Assembly (NCBI GenBank): GCA_005222965.1
Contig: NJBG01000001.1
Location: 675,533-739,532 of the forward strand
Reading direction: 5' to 3'
From: Candidatus Woesearchaeota archaeon B3_Woes
GTDB taxonomy: Archaea; Nanobdellota; Nanobdellia; Woesearchaeales; B3-WOES
Length of the DNA: 64,000 nt
Below are positions 10,381 through 55,297 of the stretch, piece by piece; position 1 is the stretch's first letter; each line of letters begins with the position of its first letter. A model generated the notes under the pieces. The model ran no database searches. It had not been told where the DNA came from and saw nothing but the letters and a program-made list of their open reading frames with translations. Both the position numbers and the translations under genes were made by a program.

Positions 10381-11997
10381 ATGGTTAAATATATCGTCGT
10401 AGCAGGAGGTGTAATGAGTGGTGTTGGCAAGGGTGTTACTACAGCTTCTATTGGCAAAATACTGCAAGAGTATGGATATAAAACAACAGCAATAAAAATA
10501 GACCCTTATATTAATTGTGACGCTGGAACACTAAGACCAACAGAACACGGAGAAGTATGGGTCACAGATGATGGAGGGGAAATTGACCAGGATTTAGGAA
10601 ACTATGAAAGGTTTTTAGATATAGATATTCTCAAAAAAAACAATATTACAACCGGTCAGGTCTATCAGGCAATAATAGAAAAAGAAAGAACAGGAAAATA
10701 CCTAGGGGAAACAGTACAATTTATTCCCCATGTTCCAGAAGAAATAAAGAAAAGAGTAAGAGAAGCTTCTGAAGGATATGATGTTTGTTTAATTGAAATA
10801 GGCGGAACAATAGGAGATTTTGAAAACCTCCCCTTCTTATTTGCAATGAAAAGCCTAGAAAGAGATTTAGGTAAAAATAACTTAATCTACATCTTAATAA
10901 CATATCTTCCTATTATGGGCCATCTAAAAGAAATGAAAACAAAACCAACACAACAAGCTATTAGATTATTAAGCGAAAACGGAATATTTCCTGATTTTAT
11001 TGTTTGTAGAGCTGTAAACCCTTTAGACGATGTTAGGAAAAAGAAAATAGAAACATACGCTAATATAGCTTCAAAATATGTTATCTCAGAACCAGATGTT
11101 AAAACAATATATGAAGTACCTCTTGATTTGGAAAAAGATGATTTAGGCAAAAAAATACTTGAAAAATTAGACCTAACTCCTAAAAAAACACCAGATTTTA
11201 AAGAATGGTCTAAGCTAGTTGATGCTATAAGAAATCCCAAAACAAAAAAGAAAATTGCTATAATTGGCAAGTATGTTGATATTGGAGATTATAATCTAAT
11301 AGATTCTTATTTGTCAATAAACCAGGCATTAATCCATGCCAGCAGTTTATTAGATGTTGGGGTAGATATGGAATGGATTGACAGTAAAAAACTTGAAAAT
11401 GATGAAAAAGAAGTTGAAAACCTGAAAAATTATGATGGAATAATTGTTCCAGGAGGATTTGGAACAAGTGGAACAGAAGGAAAAATAAAAGCAATTGAAT
11501 TTACAAGACTAAACAATATACCTTTCTTAGGATTGTGCTTAGGAATGCAATTTGCAGTAATAGAATTTGCAAGAAACGTTTGTAATCTAGAAGGTGCAAA
11601 TTCAGTAGAGATAAATCCAGACACAAAACATCCTGTTATAGATATGCTAGAAGAACAAAAAGAAATTCTTTATGAAAGCAGATATGGAGCATCTATGAGG
11701 CTTGGATCTTATCCAGCAGAACTAAAAAAAGACACAAAAGTATGGGAATTATATGGAAAAAAAGACAAAATACACGAAAGACACAGGCACAGATATGAAG
11801 TAAATCCAGAATTCATACAACAATTAGAAGAAAAAGGATTAGTATTTTCAGGTGTTTCTCCTGACAGAAAACTAATGGAATTTTTAGAACTACCTGATCA
11901 TAAATTCTTTGTAGCAACACAATCTCATCCTGAATTTAAATCAAGATTCGGAAAATCAGCACCTTTATTCTACGGATTTCTTAACTCCATGTTGTAA
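10381..11997 (+). CDS. pyrG: CTP synthase
   Basis: GGVMSGVGKG, KIDPYIN, KTKPTQ, GLCLGMQ, HPEF. Confidence 0.98.
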   Translation: MVKYIVVAGGVMSGVGKGVTTASIGKILQEYGYKTTAIKIDPYINCDAGTLRPTEHGEVWVTDDGGEIDQDLGNYERFLDIDILKKNNITTGQVYQAIIEKERTGKYLGETVQFIPHVPEEIKKRVREASEGYDVCLIEIGGTIGDFENLPFLFAMKSLERDLGKNNLIYILITYLPIMGHLKEMKTKPTQQAIRLLSENGIFPDFIVCRAVNPLDDVRKKKIETYANIASKYVISEPDVKTIYEVPLDLEKDDLGKKILEKLDLTPKKTPDFKEWSKLVDAIRNPKTKKKIAIIGKYVDIGDYNLIDSYLSINQALIHASSLLDVGVDMEWIDSKKLENDEKEVENLKNYDGIIVPGGFGTSGTEGKIKAIEFTRLNNIPFLGLCLGMQFAVIEFARNVCNLEGANSVEINPDTKHPVIDMLEEQKEILYESRYGASMRLGSYPAELKKDTKVWELYGKKDKIHERHRHRYEVNPEFIQQLEEKGLVFSGVSPDRKLMEFLELPDHKFFVATQSHPEFKSRFGKSAPLFYGFLNSML

Positions 11998-12021
11998 ACT
12001 TATTGATTACCCCCTTATTAG

Positions 12022-12053
12022 AAGATTATCAATAATAAACTATTGATAATCTT
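12022..12053. repeat. perfect 13-bp-arm palindrome with 6-bp spacer
   Basis: aagattatcaata-ataaac-tattgataatctt, immediately left of the cassette. Confidence 0.85.
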
Positions 12054-12054
12054 A

Positions 12055-12176
12055 TGTTAAGTTCAATTGTGTTTAAGTTCCCTCTTCTTTTAGAAAAAGA
12101 AGCAAAATGGGGGAGTTCAGGTACTACGTACATGTTGCATTTTACTTCGTAAAATCTATTTATCTAAAAATAGATA
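12055..12176. repeat. left structured end of cassette
   Basis: tgttaagttc (12055-64), ttgtgtttaagttcc (12067-81), tgggggagttcag (12108-20) plus local hairpins. Confidence 0.85.
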
Positions 12177-12261
12177 TTTCAATCAAAATTTTATTCCAAT
12201 AATTGATATGAAGAAGGTATTCCAGTAAAGTTTATTAACAAATAAAATAACCAATTCTATT

Positions 12262-15200
12262 ATGACTACAAATTCAAAAGACGAAATAAAAATGTCACCT
12301 AAAACATTTTATCGTTCAAGAAGACCGCAATATTTTTCAGATTCTAAAGTAACTATAAAAAATGAACTTCCAAGAGAAATTTTAGCTTATGAATTAGAAA
12401 AAATTACTGCAAATCAAAAAGAAAATGAATTTGAAAGTTTATGCAGACGACTGGCTGAAAAATTAATTTGTCCTAACCTAATTCCTCAAGTCGGTCCTAC
12501 AGGAGGCGGAGATGGTAAAACTGATTCTGAAACCTATCCTGTCTCTCCAAATATTTCTGACAGATGGTTTATTCCAGAAAAAGGATGGGATAATAATCAA
12601 AAGTGGGCATTTGCTATAAGTGCAAAAGAAAAATGGAGAGATAAAGTAAAAAGTGATGTTAAAAAAATAGTTGATACCAAAAGAGGATATACTAAAATAT
12701 TTTTTATGACAAATCAACTTGTATCAAGCAAGAAGAAAAAAGATAAACAAGATGAATTAAAAGATGAACATAAAATTGAAGTTATTATTCTTGATAAAGA
12801 ATGGATTTTAGAAAAAGTGTATGGTAATCAATTAATTGATATTGTAATAAATAGTTTAAATTTGACTCAATCTTATTCAAATAAAATAGAAGAAATAGGG
12901 TCTAATGATTCTTTAAGAAAAGAAGAATTAGAAGAAATTGAAAAAAATATTAATAACCCAAAATATTATGAGATTTATGATTTTCAATTAGTTGAAGACT
13001 CAATTAGATCTGCAATTTTATCTAGAGAATTAGAAAAACCAAAAGATGAAATAGAAGGAAAATTTCAAAGAGCTGAACGATTTTGTAAAAAAGTAAATCT
13101 AGATAAACAATGGCTAAGAATTTACTATCAAAAAGCGTGGACTTTTTTTTGGTGGTTCGAAGATTATGAAATGTTTATTGAGAATTATAAACTTTTTAAA
13201 ACATTTTTGAAAGATACAAATCAAATATTAGATGTAGAAAATTATATGAATTTATTTAATCTTCTTAGAGTTTGTTCTTCTAAAGTTGATTTAAAAAAGA
13301 TCGGTATTGATTTTAAAAAAGAGAAAGAAAACTTATTTGTTTTTATTGACAAAATTGAGAAAGATAAAGAAAGACCGAATTCTCAACTTACTGCCAAATC
13401 TTTTAAACTTATTATTGAGCTAACTGATAGTATTACTAGTAAAGGTGATAATTTAGACTTACTGCTTACTGAAATCAAAAATGTGCTAGTAAAAAGTGAA
13501 GATTATATTGAATTTCCATTCGAATCAACAAAAAATATTATTCAAGAAATAGGAAATATTATTTCTGATTTGAAGGAATATGATGAATTAATCGATATTT
13601 TAGTTAATATTTCTGAAAAACGTAACTCTCAAAGAGCAGCAGGTTTAATTTACTTTGAGAGAGGAAGACAATATTTCTTAAACGAAAAATACAACTCTTG
13701 TATTCAATATTTTGGTAAAGCTATTGTTAAATTATCTAAAGAAGAATCAAATGAGGAATTATTATATTTAATTTTTAGAGCTTTAAGTGAGTCATATAAA
13801 AATATGGGGCTAATATGGGCTTCATATAGTAGCAATGTTATGGCAACATATTATTCATTGAAACCATTTTTTAATAAACAAAGATTAACTAAAAATGCAA
13901 TTAATTGTCTTAAAGAAATGTGCTACATTGAATTAAAGATAGGAAGATTACCTTTGCTATTTTCATGGTATGAAGCATATTTTACCCTAGCAAAACAATT
14001 TAATATAAGAAATGAAGAAGATATAAGTTTTGGGGATGACTTAACCATAATAGATGGTTGTTTAGGGGTTAGGTTATTAAATTCAAAATGGAATCGTATT
14101 AAAACACAATCATTATTACCAGATGTATTGGAAAATTTAAATCTGTGGATGTCAAGAAAAGCATTAATATATTTATTAGGATATGAAGACTTGATCTGTA
14201 AGGAAAGTAATGATGACCAATTTGCGAAGGGAGAAAATCTAAATGAGTTTTTTACAAAATGGGCGAACCAACCATTCACCGAAGATATGGTTTATAGTAC
14301 TGAATTTTATAATGGTGAAGATATTACTTTAAAGTCAAAGGTTCTTGGAATTGAATTAGTTATTAATATTAAAAATGATTCAGATTCCATTCTTTATGCA
14401 GAAATGATATTAAGTCATGTTGAATCATTTTTTGCTACTAGTTTAAACAAAATATATCCTAAAAAGGATAAAATTAGTATTAATCTCATATTAGAAGAAA
14501 ATGATAAATCGGTTTCATTCAAATCAAATAATAATGGTAAATATAATTATGAATTTATAATTGATATTTCAAAAATTAACAAATCTAGTGAAAAAAATAC
14601 TTTGCCCGATGAATTAAAATCATTCATTATAGATTTATTTTCTAAGCATTTAATAATTGATAATGTTGAAAAATATTTCAAAGACCTATTTGAGCAAGAA
14701 GAAGTTCAAGAAAGAATTGCTTTTAGCTACAATCATCCTATAATTATTAAAAATATTTTAGGAGAATCACCTAAATTTCATTTGAAAAACTGGACAGAAC
14801 TCAGTAAATTAAAAAAATATGATTTAAAGCGTAAAGAACCAATTATATTTACAAATAAAAACGAAGATTCTTCAACATCTAAAAAAATTAATGACTTAAG
14901 TAATTTACGCCATGATAATCGAAAAATGGTCTCATTTATTAATATAGATTTATGGGATAAAGCTAAATGGGAGGGAGTAGGTTTAGGTTTTCATCCTAAA
15001 TTAGGACCTTTTATTGCAATCTGTTTTCAAGACATAGCAATTGGAAAACAAATATTTAAAGAATTAATTGATAAAATTGGAAAGACAGATACAAATGAGA
15101 AACTTCGTCTCTCTATAATTAGAGGTACAAATAAAAAACATCCTCATTGGTATAAAGTTCATTTAGGAACAAATTTAAATAAATTTGAGTTTAAAGAAAA

Positions 15201-15513
15201 AACATACATAACTGCTTCCAGAATTCACGAGATGAATCCTTATAATGATACAAATATTAAAAATTTTATTGAATTATATAGGGAACATAAAGAATATTAT
15301 TTAATGCCTGGGAAGATGTCGCTAGACAAAAAAGGAGTTGAACCATTTTTCGAATTAGGAATTAAAAAAAAGGAATTAAATATATCCTTTGCTTGGAAGA
15401 TTGATAGAAATAATCCTGATTTGGTAGTAATTCGAGAAGGTGATGAACCTTATATTCCTGATGATGTTAAGGATGCACCCGTAAACGATTTATTAAAAAA
15501 AATCAAAAAATAA
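12262..15513 (+). CDS. 1083-aa protein: N-terminal PD-(D/E)XK/Mrr-like nuclease fold plus TPR-like helical region; candidate defence protein
   Basis: FESLCRRL..GGGDGKTD..AFAISAK N-terminal pattern; TPR-like segment YFERGRQYF..YFGKAIVKL..ALSESYKNMG. Confidence 0.6.
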   Translation: MTTNSKDEIKMSPKTFYRSRRPQYFSDSKVTIKNELPREILAYELEKITANQKENEFESLCRRLAEKLICPNLIPQVGPTGGGDGKTDSETYPVSPNISDRWFIPEKGWDNNQKWAFAISAKEKWRDKVKSDVKKIVDTKRGYTKIFFMTNQLVSSKKKKDKQDELKDEHKIEVIILDKEWILEKVYGNQLIDIVINSLNLTQSYSNKIEEIGSNDSLRKEELEEIEKNINNPKYYEIYDFQLVEDSIRSAILSRELEKPKDEIEGKFQRAERFCKKVNLDKQWLRIYYQKAWTFFWWFEDYEMFIENYKLFKTFLKDTNQILDVENYMNLFNLLRVCSSKVDLKKIGIDFKKEKENLFVFIDKIEKDKERPNSQLTAKSFKLIIELTDSITSKGDNLDLLLTEIKNVLVKSEDYIEFPFESTKNIIQEIGNIISDLKEYDELIDILVNISEKRNSQRAAGLIYFERGRQYFLNEKYNSCIQYFGKAIVKLSKEESNEELLYLIFRALSESYKNMGLIWASYSSNVMATYYSLKPFFNKQRLTKNAINCLKEMCYIELKIGRLPLLFSWYEAYFTLAKQFNIRNEEDISFGDDLTIIDGCLGVRLLNSKWNRIKTQSLLPDVLENLNLWMSRKALIYLLGYEDLICKESNDDQFAKGENLNEFFTKWANQPFTEDMVYSTEFYNGEDITLKSKVLGIELVINIKNDSDSILYAEMILSHVESFFATSLNKIYPKKDKISINLILEENDKSVSFKSNNNGKYNYEFIIDISKINKSSEKNTLPDELKSFIIDLFSKHLIIDNVEKYFKDLFEQEEVQERIAFSYNHPIIIKNILGESPKFHLKNWTELSKLKKYDLKRKEPIIFTNKNEDSSTSKKINDLSNLRHDNRKMVSFINIDLWDKAKWEGVGLGFHPKLGPFIAICFQDIAIGKQIFKELIDKIGKTDTNEKLRLSIIRGTNKKHPHWYKVHLGTNLNKFEFKEKTYITASRIHEMNPYNDTNIKNFIELYREHKEYYLMPGKMSLDKKGVEPFFELGIKKKELNISFAWKIDRNNPDLVVIREGDEPYIPDDVKDAPVNDLLKKIKK

Positions 15514-15539
15514 TTCTTTTTTATACTTGTTCTTAATGT

Positions 15540-15680
15540 GTCGCTTCGCTCTTTTGAAGGAACTGAACTCCCCCAGTGCTACGCACATATAGTCTTGACT
15601 TTGTCAAGAATTTATTGGAACTTAAACACAACTCTGCGGACGCAGTTTTCCCACACTTTGTATTGTAAAAGAACTTAACA
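15540..15680. repeat. right structured end of cassette
   Basis: ctgaactccccca (15563-75), ggaacttaaacacaa (15617-31), gaacttaaca (15671-80) plus local hairpins. Confidence 0.85.
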
Positions 15681-15769
15681 AGACCCAATGTTAGACAATA
15701 TAACTCCTTCTAATGCAGCAACGCATTAATTACGAAACCTTTATAAAATACTTATTTATTTCAGTTGAT

Positions 15770-17104
15770 ATGGGGGAAGAAGAACAGAAGAAAGAGGAAC
15801 ATGCTGAAGAAGAGAATTCTATTCATGAAACTATTGAAGAACCTAAATCAGAAGAAGATATCTATAAGAAAGAAGACAGAAAAGAAATGGTGGATGATGC
15901 TGAAATAAGTCCTGAAGAAGAAGGATTTATGAAAGGTTATGATAAAGCAGATGAAGAAAAACCAGAAGAAAAAGTTGAAGAACAACCTAAAAAAGAACTA
16001 ATCGAAGAAAAAAAAGAAAAACAAACAAAAAAAGAAAAACATAAAGAAAAAGTAAAAAAAGAAAAAAAAACTCTAAAACAAACAATAAAACACTTATATG
16101 AAAAAAAATACAAAAAATTACTAATCATTCCATTCACTTTACTAATACTTTCTTTAATTCTAATAGGAATTCAAATAGCAACAACTGGAGATTTTATAAG
16201 AAAAGACGTAAGCCTAAGTGGCGGAATAACAATAACAATCCAATCAGATAAAGACGTAAATGTTCTTGATATTAAAGATTATTTAAACAATCAATTCCCT
16301 GATTCAGAGCTATCTGTTAGAGGCCTAAAACAAACAGGAAGACAAATCGGATTAATAATTGAAGGAACAGAAGATATTGAATCAGAACAAATAATTACTT
16401 CTCTAACTTCAAAAATAGGTGAATTAGAAAAAGATCAATACAGCGTTGCTGTAATGGGTTCTAGCCTAGGGGCAAGCTTTTTCAGAGAAACAATCAAAGC
16501 AATATACATTTCATTCCTTTTTATGGGCATTGTTATCTTCTTATATTTTAGCAAAGGAACCAAAATAAAAATAATATCAACATTTCTTACTCTTATTGCA
16601 GCTATGTTAATGTTTGGTGGAAGCCACTCAACACTAAAAAGTGTAATAGCATATCTTATTGGAATAACTCTACTTGTAATTTATTTTAAAAAAAGCATTC
16701 CTAGCTTTGTGGTTATCCTTAATGTTTTCTCAGATGTCATTGTCACACTAGCCATAATAGACTTAATTGGTATGAAACTATCTACAGCAGGAATCGCAGC
16801 ATTCCTAATGATTATTGGTTATTCTGTTGATACTAACATATTATTATCTACTAAACTTCTCAAAAGAAAAGAAGGAACAGTTTTTGAGAGGCTTATTGGT
16901 TCTATGAAAACAGGATTAACAATGACACTAACAACATCAGTAGCAATAATTGTAGCACTTATGTTTACACAATCTAGTGTTATACAGCAAATAATGACCA
17001 TACTATTTATTGGATTGATAGTAGATATGATATATACATGGCTGCAAAATGCAGGAATCCTAAGATTATACTTAGACAAAAAAAACAATGAAACACAAAG
17101 CTAA
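15770..17104 (+). CDS. secF: protein translocase subunit SecF with long acidic/charged N-terminal extension
   Basis: DVSLSGG, AGIAAFLMIIGYSVDTNILL; start MGEEEQK downstream of BRE/TATA. Confidence 0.88.
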   Translation: MGEEEQKKEEHAEEENSIHETIEEPKSEEDIYKKEDRKEMVDDAEISPEEEGFMKGYDKADEEKPEEKVEEQPKKELIEEKKEKQTKKEKHKEKVKKEKKTLKQTIKHLYEKKYKKLLIIPFTLLILSLILIGIQIATTGDFIRKDVSLSGGITITIQSDKDVNVLDIKDYLNNQFPDSELSVRGLKQTGRQIGLIIEGTEDIESEQIITSLTSKIGELEKDQYSVAVMGSSLGASFFRETIKAIYISFLFMGIVIFLYFSKGTKIKIISTFLTLIAAMLMFGGSHSTLKSVIAYLIGITLLVIYFKKSIPSFVVILNVFSDVIVTLAIIDLIGMKLSTAGIAAFLMIIGYSVDTNILLSTKLLKRKEGTVFERLIGSMKTGLTMTLTTSVAIIVALMFTQSSVIQQIMTILFIGLIVDMIYTWLQNAGILRLYLDKKNNETQS

Positions 17105-19670: not shown

Positions 19671-19768
19671 GCCTCCATAGCTTAGTAGGTAGAGCGTGCG
19701 ACTGTTAATCGCAAGGTCGGCAGAAACGATATAAAAGTCGTTGTCGAATTCAAGTCTGCCTGGAGGCG
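19671..19768 (+). tRNA. tRNA-Asn(GTT) with 25-nt intron at 53/54 (19724-19748)
   Basis: Removing aaacgatataaaagtcgttgtcgaa restores the GGCAG-TTCAAGT-CTGCC T arm; BHB-like junction. Confidence 0.92.
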
Positions 19769-55136: not shown

Positions 55137-55297
55137 TGCTCCTAAGGGGATTTGAACCCCTGTCTCAGGCTTTTTCTAACAGATTATGCGAGCGTTTAGC
55201 GAGCAAGTGTGGCTTTATGCCGCACCTTGCGTGTCAACCGCGCGTAACCAGTTGTTGCGAGAAGCCTACATGCTTGACCGGACTACACTATAGGAGC
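55137..55297 (-). tRNA. tRNA-Glu(CTC) with 86-nt intron at 37/38 (55172-55257)
   Basis: GCTCCTA/TAGGAGC acceptor; canonical BHB with TTCT/AGAA helix and CGC, AAA bulges. Confidence 0.93.

Follow-up and report, generated by a model that had tools for sequence, protein, structure and literature searches.

The DPANN archaea have genomes of about 1 Mb and depend on hosts, and the question of how accessory and defence genes reach them is open. XerA is present in almost every archaeon. The recombination site of integron cassettes, attC, follows the consensus strings RYYYAAC (R'') and GTTRRRY (R'), and for the CTX phage, an integrative mobile element exploiting Xer (IMEX), a folded single strand is the Xer substrate. 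Integrons and clusters of attC sites lacking integrases (CALINs) have been reported from archaea where, in the available part of that study, the integrase is a canonical IntI with its extra domain and the cassettes are mostly co-oriented (Ghaly et al. 2022, PMC9668308). The archaeal dif site is described, in the available portion of the article, as a single 11-6-11 site per chromosome (Cortez et al. 2010, PMC2958812). The available sections of a 2021 review of archaeal tyrosine recombinases (PMC8371274) mention neither cassettes nor DPANN archaea nor hairpins. Here we describe a unit located at 11999-15726 of a window of 64,000 nucleotides from Candidatus Woesearchaeota archaeon B3_Woes (genome of 1.02 Mb, 30% G+C), where a single gene between pyrG and secF is framed by segmented inverted repeats and preceded by a dif-like palindrome. 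This unit is probably an orphan, an outpost with a single cassette, of an integron-like system of Woesearchaeota and Nanoarchaeota that is associated with XerA. The system would be Xer-served and have a split fold-back site. No description of XerA-linked cassette arrays or of split fold-back sites in archaea was found in the literature covered, the scope of which left out most subscription journals and the supplements of PMC9668308; some of the junction hairpins presented below may be among the attC calls of that study. Throughout, C1 designates the contig of this genome (G000) and L-numbers designate the compared loci.

Inverted arms around a single gene at the pyrG-secF locus

The original prediction had described a single-gene cassette bounded by three nested pairs of exact reverse complements, and all three pairs are present where it placed them on the plus strand. 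Block A (12055-12064, 10 nt), composed of the core TGTTA and cassette-specific bases, is the exact complement of A' (15671-15680), which ends in TAACA and forms the right cassette boundary. Block B (12067-12081, 15 nt) is in the same way the complement of B' (15617-15631), and block C (12108-12120, 13 nt) that of C' (15563-15575); in the repeat search, the inner pair lengthens to 18 nt at 89%. The spacers differ between the two sides as announced, measuring 2 and 26 nt on the left against 41 and 39 nt on the right, and no target-site duplication is visible (tctta versus agacc). The only cargo is indeed one open reading frame (ORF), P0001 (12262-15513, plus strand, 1083 aa), flanked by pyrG and two SecD/F-family genes. 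The motif RAGTTC, said to occur in each block, does so in this cassette and fails as a family motif, as illustrated by blocks such as TTCGGGGCTCGCC and GGGCTGGGCAA elsewhere.

Taken together, the exact blocks form a collinear chain of 38 nt. None of 5000 mononucleotide shuffles of both arms attains this value (maximum 27), nor does any of 5000 genomic window pairs drawn at random with identical geometry (maximum 27). An information-weighted scan of C1 for nested inverted blocks ranks this chain fourth, and its first rank is taken by a second locus of the same kind (C1:198028-199314, hereafter locus 2). Co-folding of the two arms with DNA parameters predicts the proposed panhandle, with three inter-arm helices and side hairpins, and yields a gain of -34.9 kcal/mol compared to -6.9 +/- 1.8 (minimum -14.9) for 200 shuffled partners; the opposite strand gives -35.2 kcal/mol. 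A multi-copy repeat of the genome itself was rejected as the source of the blocks, since block C occurs in the genome at up to one mismatch solely at its two arm sites and the 37-nt palindrome described next is present only twice. A split or permuted non-coding RNA (tRNA halves, or an SRP or RNase P RNA interrupted by a gene) was rejected as well, the same arms surrounding other cargo.

The original prediction began the unit at block A and missed a conserved element to its left. The H site (12023-12054, plus strand) is a dif-like palindrome, AGATTATCAATA / ATAAAC / TATTGATAATCT in a 12-6-12 arrangement, followed by TA; together with TGTTA it makes up a 37-nt sequence that is part of the unit and has identical copies at just two positions of the genome. 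Block A is the left cassette boundary: homology between loci either stops at +5 or begins at -2/-1 relative to TGTTA, and block A is presumably the crossover region. Between A and B stands the motif CAAT (12064-12067, plus strand), conserved on the left arm only, and the composite TGTTA-N4-[CA]AAT is present in the true loci and beside recombinase genes.

Recurrence of the architecture and replacement of cassettes

The blocks recur elsewhere in this genome, as the original prediction had proposed to verify. Blocks A and B and a C-like block reappear around different cargo at C1:104141-106290, with block B at C1:104153 and its complement at C1:106219, and, this place included, the layout is found at four or more positions of the genome besides the pyrG-secF locus. 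At locus 2, the blocks TGTTATACG, TAAATCTGAAGTCC and GGGGCAAACTTATT surround asd on the minus strand. Locus 2 and the pyrG-secF locus carry on the same strand the identical 37-nt AGATTATCAATA-ATAAAC-TATTGATAATCT-TA-TGTTA, a common right-arm motif of about 31 nt ending in TCTTTTGAAGGA, and a terminal TAACA followed by a short spacer and a further TGTTA, while their paired blocks are unrelated. Besides locus 2, cassettes are located at C1:199325, C1:104141 (the one just named) and C1:905414. The H site thus occurs twice in the genome, and another type of site is found at C1:98280, 104126, 124908 and 905399.

Public contigs were then scanned for the 19-mer TATTGATAATCTTATGTTA, which gave 54 metagenome and 22 genome loci. 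The full palindrome is present in 32 loci from DPANN assemblies (Woesearchaeota and Nanoarchaeota), the remainder being chance matches in bacteria; at up to three mismatches, the 36-nt palindrome was found in none of 400 other genomes of the order. Among the 24 testable H-type loci, defined by at least 290 nt of downstream sequence and explored over a 2-kb flank (22 of them distinct), 15 possess nested exact reverse-complement partners (13 of the 22 distinct ones). These partners lie 0.3-1.8 kb downstream and pair with blocks at offsets of 0, 12 and about 40-60: TGTTA+N4 is partnered at offset 0, a 12-16-nt block at offset 12 after CAAT, and often more blocks follow. The general layout begins with a dif-like palindrome, followed by TGTTA+N4, CAAT and the cassette-specific blocks. 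Next come one or two genes, which have TATA-like boxes of their own and may lie on either strand, and then a right arm in which the complementary blocks are interleaved with conserved small hairpins and which ends in N4+TAACA. The ORF nearest to the palindrome lies on the same strand in 8 of 19 loci and on the opposite one in 11. The cargo is diverse and of accessory nature, including NUDIX, HD, low-molecular-weight (LMW) phosphatase, HNH, methyltransferase, LemA and RhuM proteins and many without a family.

Comparison of these loci separates a stable from a variable component of the arms. Locus 2 and L015, which belong to different genomes and carry different cargo, have 41 of 42 nt in common in the B'-A' hairpin module, whereas A and A' differ on both sides (TGTTATACG/CGTATAACA versus TGTTATGTG/CACATAACA) and the B blocks show no relation to each other; the pair C1:905414 and L034 follows the same pattern. 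Shared hairpins next to changed blocks indicate that the hairpins form a conserved scaffold and that the paired blocks are hypervariable, each co-varying with a partner 0.5-3.6 kb away. In L029 and L015, the pairing blocks overlap the cargo's first and last codons. The right ends of L034 and L015 read N4-TAACA-GCGATTAAGAGG-loop-CCTCTTAATCGC-GA-TGTTA-N4-CAAT, so that a junction hairpin directly precedes the start of the next unit and cassettes form arrays. From TAACA to the TGTTA that follows, the distance ranges between 8 and about 45 nt.

As read from sequence comparison, cassettes are replaced and re-positioned at TGTTA. L015 and L034 agree at 99.3% identity along 1765 nt as far as +5, then contain unrelated cassettes of 584 and 774 nt, and return to 100% identity with the 3' half of the junction hairpin. 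L011 and L064 have in first place, from -2 onwards, the second cassette of L022 (95% and 91% identity), the cassette that stands first in L034 stands second in L036, and L021 and L036 have a cassette in common in different flanks. The pyrG-secF locus itself was compared with metagenome contigs from four runs of two studies, assembled and retained at a likeness of at least 88%, which inform on presence and not on frequency. The empty site that the original prediction had suggested to seek was encountered on one contig of run X4 (depth 81), which joins 11998 to 15727 with ACCA in between and places pyrG beside secF with neither palindrome, arms nor cargo. The bin 15522-15772 reaches depths of 145, 103, 29 and 24 in the four runs as opposed to about 0-20 in most bins, run X4 being also high over pyrG and at 15773-16023; this depth points to a right arm that is multi-copy in the community. 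Fourteen contigs (4+8+2) match to exactly 15680, the A of TAACA, and continue with junction-type sequence (GGGATTA.../GGAATTAAAAG...), and in eight X2 contigs the match to the window starts at 15630 after a different preceding sequence. The joints 12080->15576 and 12107->15574 in runs X1 and X2 were considered as excision products and rejected, as they represent left arms of relatives in which the hairpin after C finds its better match in the right arm.

Several side observations concern these loci. The region of locus 2 (C1:198028-200400, L004 1529-3900) is a two-cassette array behind an H site: its first cassette carries asd (aspartate-semialdehyde dehydrogenase), an unusual biosynthetic cargo, on the minus strand, and its second, from C1:199325, displays TGTTATGCG-AAAT, a block TCGAAAGAAAGACC with a partner 1049 nt further on and a gene for an EamA-family transporter. 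The 3' end of a tRNA lies about 100 nt upstream of the locus 2 H site. At C1:124901-124950, a left arm TGTTATGTGCAATATTACTCGG... stands behind half a palindrome, and in L015 and L038 it stands behind H-type sites, which makes it one arm family spanning genomes and site types. Two copies of a flank of about 130 nt (GCATGGCAAATG.CAAGTGTAT...) with the palindrome CAACACCT..TTAATACTTCGTTTAATAGGTGTTA are found at C1:98150-98310 and C1:104030-104145, one adjoining xerA and the other 6 kb to its left; the genes to the left of these flank copies (97499-98053 and 106333-106872, both on the minus strand) are paralogous at their ends. A 9.8-kb 'super-cassette' at C1:98295-108145 was discarded as a probable chance arrangement, its A' falling within a coding region and its B being an 11-nt AT-rich match.

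XerA-family recombinases and the weighing of explanations

The presence of a tyrosine recombinase in association with the arms had been raised by the original prediction, and in this genome as in relatives, a XerA-family gene is in fact located divergently beside a site of this kind. About 15 H-type loci share an upstream homology of some 800 nt that ends at +5, just past TGTTA. All five H-type loci that were translated encode a tyrosine recombinase of 267-273 aa on the opposite strand with its start 71-87 nt from TGTTA, the H palindrome lying about 86 nt from the recombinase start codon in all five, and the conserved TATATAAA left of the palindrome is the TATA box of this gene, reading leftwards. 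The H-type recombinase of L029 (268 aa) scores 253.1 bits on NF040815 (recomb_XerA_Arch, cut-off 220) and 211 bits on TIGR02249 (integrase_gron), below the cut-off of 265. The B3_Woes genome has two PF00589 genes, the full-length one being located at C1:103166-103993 on the minus strand. Its 276-aa product scores 221.8 bits on NF040815 and 165.3 bits on TIGR02249 and is 41% identical to the H-type protein. Both proteins match TIGR02249 in two stretches only, profile positions 1-184 and the C-terminus, which indicates that the IntI-specific insert is lacking in these XerA-like recombinases.

About 150 nt from the start codon of the 276-aa XerA homologue, the palindrome CAACACCTATTAA-TACTTCG-TTTAATAGGTGTTA (site 104113-104145) heads a cassette and is followed by AGTT-CAAT, blocks A and B identical to those of the pyrG-secF locus and a C-like block. 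The right arm of this first cassette of the platform is homologous to that of the pyrG-secF locus over its full length, with its hairpins swapped for other hairpins, and its cargo consists of two minus-strand genes unrelated to P0001. The XerA platform lies 584 kb from the pyrG-secF cassette. Homologues of this XerA were collected from 23 of 30 relatives, each relative from a different family, giving 28 loci: a strict TGTTA-N4-NAWT core occurs in the divergent upstream region of 8 of them, variant or contig-truncated cores were recognised by eye in 6 more, and several contigs of the relatives end exactly at TGTTA. Six of the compared loci (L092-L097, from G027, G019, G018, G006, G007 and G021) show beside the XerA TATA box a palindrome of the CGTATAA-TGTACC-TTATACG type (11-6-11-like), which may be the true chromosomal dif of those lineages. 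With regard to the other enzymes the original prediction had named, Y1_Tnp (PF01797) was not found in this 96%-complete genome, in a search that did not extend to DDE families.

The undescribed cassette capture or exchange system mobilised in trans that had been suggested for this locus is therefore supported by recurrence, by replacement at TGTTA, by the empty site and by a candidate XerA enzyme. A full platform comprises a XerA-family gene and, about 90-240 nt upstream and facing away, a dif-like primary site with TGTTA and at least one cassette. A cassette extends from TGTTA+N4 to N4+TAACA and brings one or two genes, in either orientation, together with a promoter of its own. Were the cassette free and circular, its arms would be contiguous, and the order C'..B'..A'-junction-A..B..C would form a long imperfect palindrome, an attC-like fold-back site. 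We infer that XerA catalyses the reaction on a folded single-stranded substrate, with strand exchange close to the dyad, within the conserved (A)TGTTA core, the exact nucleotide of crossover being set there with the same reserve. Integration would split the palindrome into two arms around the cargo and generate the segmented panhandle. A split fold-back site explains at once the nested order, the exact pairing, the arm families independent of cargo and the presence of cargo on either strand. The arrangement suggests that the blocks let the cassette's own ends meet in single-stranded DNA while scaffold and cores serve protein recognition, and the panhandle may also be active in the integrated state. 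A farther-reaching proposal is possible though doubtful: DPANN archaea would have evolved independently a second gene-capture system on XerA, in which private-address blocks set in a hairpin scaffold would pair the ends in single-stranded DNA and one cassette would be excised or inserted at TGTTA, the partner sites being selected by base-pairing in cis instead of by protein synapsis.

A number of observations weigh against the integron-like interpretation. No partner was found within the 2-kb flank for 9 of the 24 testable H-type loci, the right arms of which may lie beyond that flank. The recombinase is an ordinary-looking XerA and could be a plain dimer resolvase beside its dif, and in the available part of PMC2958812 the dif sites of Sulfolobales are also near xerA. 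The genome contains only one full-length XerA copy and not the H-type recombinase itself; its H site would hence require a paralogue of 41% identity that has a different palindrome of its own. The empty-site contig probably derives from a relative, which leaves insertion and loss undistinguished, and neither a circle nor an excision scar within one population was present among the assembled contigs. A census of TGTTA-cored pairs with block thresholds of 11 and 13 nt returned 9 and 3 pairs compared to up to 22 and 12 for control 5-mers, as many chance pairs arising for other 5-mers in the AT-rich background, so that the census fails to single out TGTTA and family membership rests on the longer blocks and on comparison. 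The variable distance between TAACA and TGTTA, discussed hereafter, also counts among these points.

The best surviving alternative, in our view an unlikely one, is that of double-stranded Xer/dif modules: ordinary dif-like sites would bound IMEX-like inserts, and the blocks would be leftovers or protein-binding arms devoid of any folding role. The H site is a perfect 12-6-12 palindrome and the site beside the xerA of this genome is close to 11-7-11, which corresponds to the dif geometry given in the available part of PMC2958812; the recombinase passes the XerA equivalog cut-off and has no integron-integrase insert; and the dif modules of Acinetobacter, according to the available portion of the literature on them, demonstrate that Xer sites can bound shuffling gene modules. 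The breakpoints of homology fall nevertheless at TGTTA, 15-20 nt right of the H spacer and not within it. The junctions between cassettes have no arms in common with H, and the 8-45 nt that separate TAACA from TGTTA are a misfit with a double-stranded core site of fixed length. Cassette-specific complementarity is moreover kept by two-sided changes beside a near-identical scaffold and reaches the coding ends in L029 and L015, which argues for selection on pairing.

Still less probable is a panhandle acting at the level of RNA, for processing, circularisation, insulation or stabilisation of a transcript in the manner of archaeal rRNA processing stems. Many right-arm hairpins have loops of the C(TTCG)G type, typical of stable RNA hairpins, the single arms fold somewhat better than shuffles (z of -2.47 and -2.35) and the small stem differs between arms by a compensatory change. 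On the other hand, the cargo occurs on either strand (8 same, 11 opposite of 19) with its own promoter inside the arms, so that in half of the cases a transcript running across the arms would be antisense, and the conserved TATA box left of H points leftwards into the recombinase gene. Permissive Rfam scans of both arms gave no match better than an E of 1.4 (17.6 bits, the gathering score being 100). None of the 7 isolated mismatches in 1219 paired positions is G.T (1 A.C, 6 other), numbers too small to decide, and a role in RNA leaves the replacement of cassettes at TGTTA unexplained. Decayed terminal inverted repeats of an insertion sequence (IS) or of a MITE (a miniature inverted-repeat transposable element), or chance similarity, are highly improbable: the unit does have inverted ends with TGT...ACA termini and is an insertion relative to one metagenome contig, but chance is excluded by the 0/5000 shuffles and 0/5000 genomic pairs, there is no target duplication, the repeats are segmented, the blocks are exact and not decayed, the ends of the copies differ beyond TGTTA/TAACA, and no Y1/HUH transposase was found in the genome, Y1 being the only family searched.

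Likeness to known systems and further features of the unit

Within the integron-like interpretation favoured here, the resemblance to integrons concerns several levels. A tyrosine recombinase gene lies divergently beside a primary site that is followed by an array of small accessory genes; this holds for the system (the C1:103166-103993 platform and five of five H-type loci), whereas the pyrG-secF locus has pyrG upstream instead. The boundaries fall in a conserved GTT/AAC core, here TGTTA/TAACA, a cassette opens with bases complementary to others close to its far end, and the imperfect palindromes vary in sequence while keeping their pairing. Arm families are common to different cargo, like species-specific attC repeats, and orphan clusters deprived of a recombinase exist as in CALINs, the pyrG-secF cassette being one of them. 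The claim that the ends do not fit a canonical attC is too strong, given the TAAC...GTTA cores and the complement of the first bases. ACTTAAC and GTTAAGT at the pyrG-secF cassette fit the attC consensus strings, and the L boxes are absent from the 8-nt junction.

The system also differs from integrons. The recombinase is XerA-like, of 268-276 aa, and below the integron-integrase cut-off, and a perfect palindrome of dif-like type serves as the primary site. In the cassette, the cargo divides the palindrome in two, whereas attC is whole at the 3' end with about 6 nt 5' of the ORF; in the pyrG-secF cassette, 66 nt of paired arm are on the left side of the cargo and 118 nt on the right, and the same split exists in other loci. 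The paired region spans 40-120 nt, and only one of the arms carries conserved side hairpins. The cargo has its own promoter and either orientation, when integron cassettes are mostly promoterless and co-oriented, and the cassettes come in arrays of one or two scattered round the chromosome.

Small gene modules bounded by Xer-type sites and shuffled between replicons, as described for Acinetobacter plasmids in the available part of the sources, are another likeness. With Xer-dependent elements the system has in common that a housekeeping-type Xer recombinase is the presumed enzyme, acting in trans, and the CTX phage provides a precedent for a folded single-stranded hairpin as Xer substrate. It differs from them by a single XerA in place of XerC/XerD, by its archaeal chromosome, by boundaries between cassettes that are not 28-bp 11-6-11 sites (TAACA-N8-TGTTA here, N10 to about N45 elsewhere) and by cassette-specific inverted blocks and scaffold hairpins that have no counterpart. 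With archaeal XerA/dif, as far as the available text of PMC2958812 describes it, the likeness extends to the recombinase family (NF040815), the inverted repeat of 11-12 bp, the 6-bp spacer and the proximity to xerA; dif is single there and heads no cassettes, while several sites per genome head exchangeable genes here.

If it is real, a XerA-served cassette system would represent a general route of gene capture, including capture from bacteria, a point on which the P0001 family bears, being otherwise named from bacteria only among the matches listed. Standing midway between Xer/dif and IntI/attC logic, it would also have implications for how integrons arose. A fold-back site that is split and whose pairing is cassette-specific has a new geometry and, if functional, would be usable as a programmable recombination target. 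The sites break assemblies and account for some 'orphan' islands in metagenome-assembled genomes (MAGs).

The remaining features of the unit, all on the plus strand, are in keeping with this layout. No mobilising enzyme is encoded at the locus, as the original prediction had stated: the recombinase gene is absent and the pyrG stop codon is at 11995-11997. The left flank (11999-12022) is a remnant of the promoter region that elsewhere separates a XerA-like gene from the H site, and homology to H-type platforms begins at -55 to -63 from TGTTA in blastn. Most spacers were said to fold into their own hairpins, and these are predicted in the left spacer and in both right ones. The left spacer hairpin (12084-12104), CTTCTTTT-AGA-AAAAGAAG, is predicted both in the single-arm fold and in the co-fold. 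A small hairpin, GTAC-TAC-GTAC (12121-12131), has as its right-arm counterpart after C' the sequence GTGC-TAC-GCAC, the stem of which differs by a compensatory change, and L016 has GTGCTACGCAC at the homologous left-arm position. On the right, the motif TCTTAATGTGTCGCTTCGCTCTTTTGAAGGA (15531-15561) is shared with locus 2 in the alignment, TCTTTTGAAGGA being exact in both right arms. The co-fold predicts GTGC-TAC-GCAC at 15576-15586 and TCTTGAC-TTT-GTCAAGA at 15593-15609, and the platform cassette has homologous right-spacer hairpins of different sequence. The B'-A' scaffold (15632-15670) contains the hairpin CTGCG-GA-CGCAG (15634-15645) and a YTTGYA motif. A reduced junction site, TAACA-AGACCCAA-TGTTA (15676-15693), is the counterpart of the longer J hairpins of arrays, which read TAACA-GCGATTAAGAGG...CCTCTTAATCGC-GA-TGTTA in L034 and L015. 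The tail of the unit (15694-15726), with a degenerate TGTTA-GA-CAAT start and a TAATGC/GCATTA hairpin, reaches the joint of the empty site.

The cargo gene P0001 has a TATA-like TTTATTAA about 25 nt upstream of its ATG. Its product matches no Pfam, PADLOC or NCBIfam family and no PDB sequence, and the gene was found in none of 60 relatives of the order. It has 595 homologues at E<=1e-5; the matches listed are 40-50% identical (one 81%) over the full length, and those bearing names are bacterial and come from many phyla. Homologues that, where named, are bacterial, together with absence from the 60 relatives, form the pattern of a horizontally moving gene. The family consists of proteins of about 1075 aa without a Pfam domain, and many homologues are on contigs of only 3.3-3.7 kb, as if flanking repeats broke the assembly. 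The language-model neighbours of P0001 (Cap4_nuclease, 26% of one cluster, Mrr_cat, DUF4365 and TPR; best score 0.90), which are leads only, hint at an N-terminal Mrr/Cap4-like nuclease and at TPR-like repeats and make P0001 a candidate defence gene.

Other observations lie outside the unit. On the minus strand of the window, 1555-1567 reads TGGGGGAGTTTGG, two mismatches off block C, and resembles the C-like GGGGGAGTTTG of the platform cassette; it may be a fragment of another arm. A shorter tyrosine recombinase of 217 aa (C1:856270-856920, L084 1465-2118; PF00589, 93 bits), without the N-terminal SAM-like domain, is found next to two coiled-coil/HTH-like ORFs and a 300-aa ORF with a HPFxxGNGR-like Fic motif seen by eye, in a region that may be an integrated element. 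At gathering thresholds, Rfam recognises five tRNAs and nothing else in the whole window. Its matches at 19671-19768 (98 nt) and 55137-55297 (161 nt) are not reported by ARAGORN and are probably intron-containing tRNA genes.

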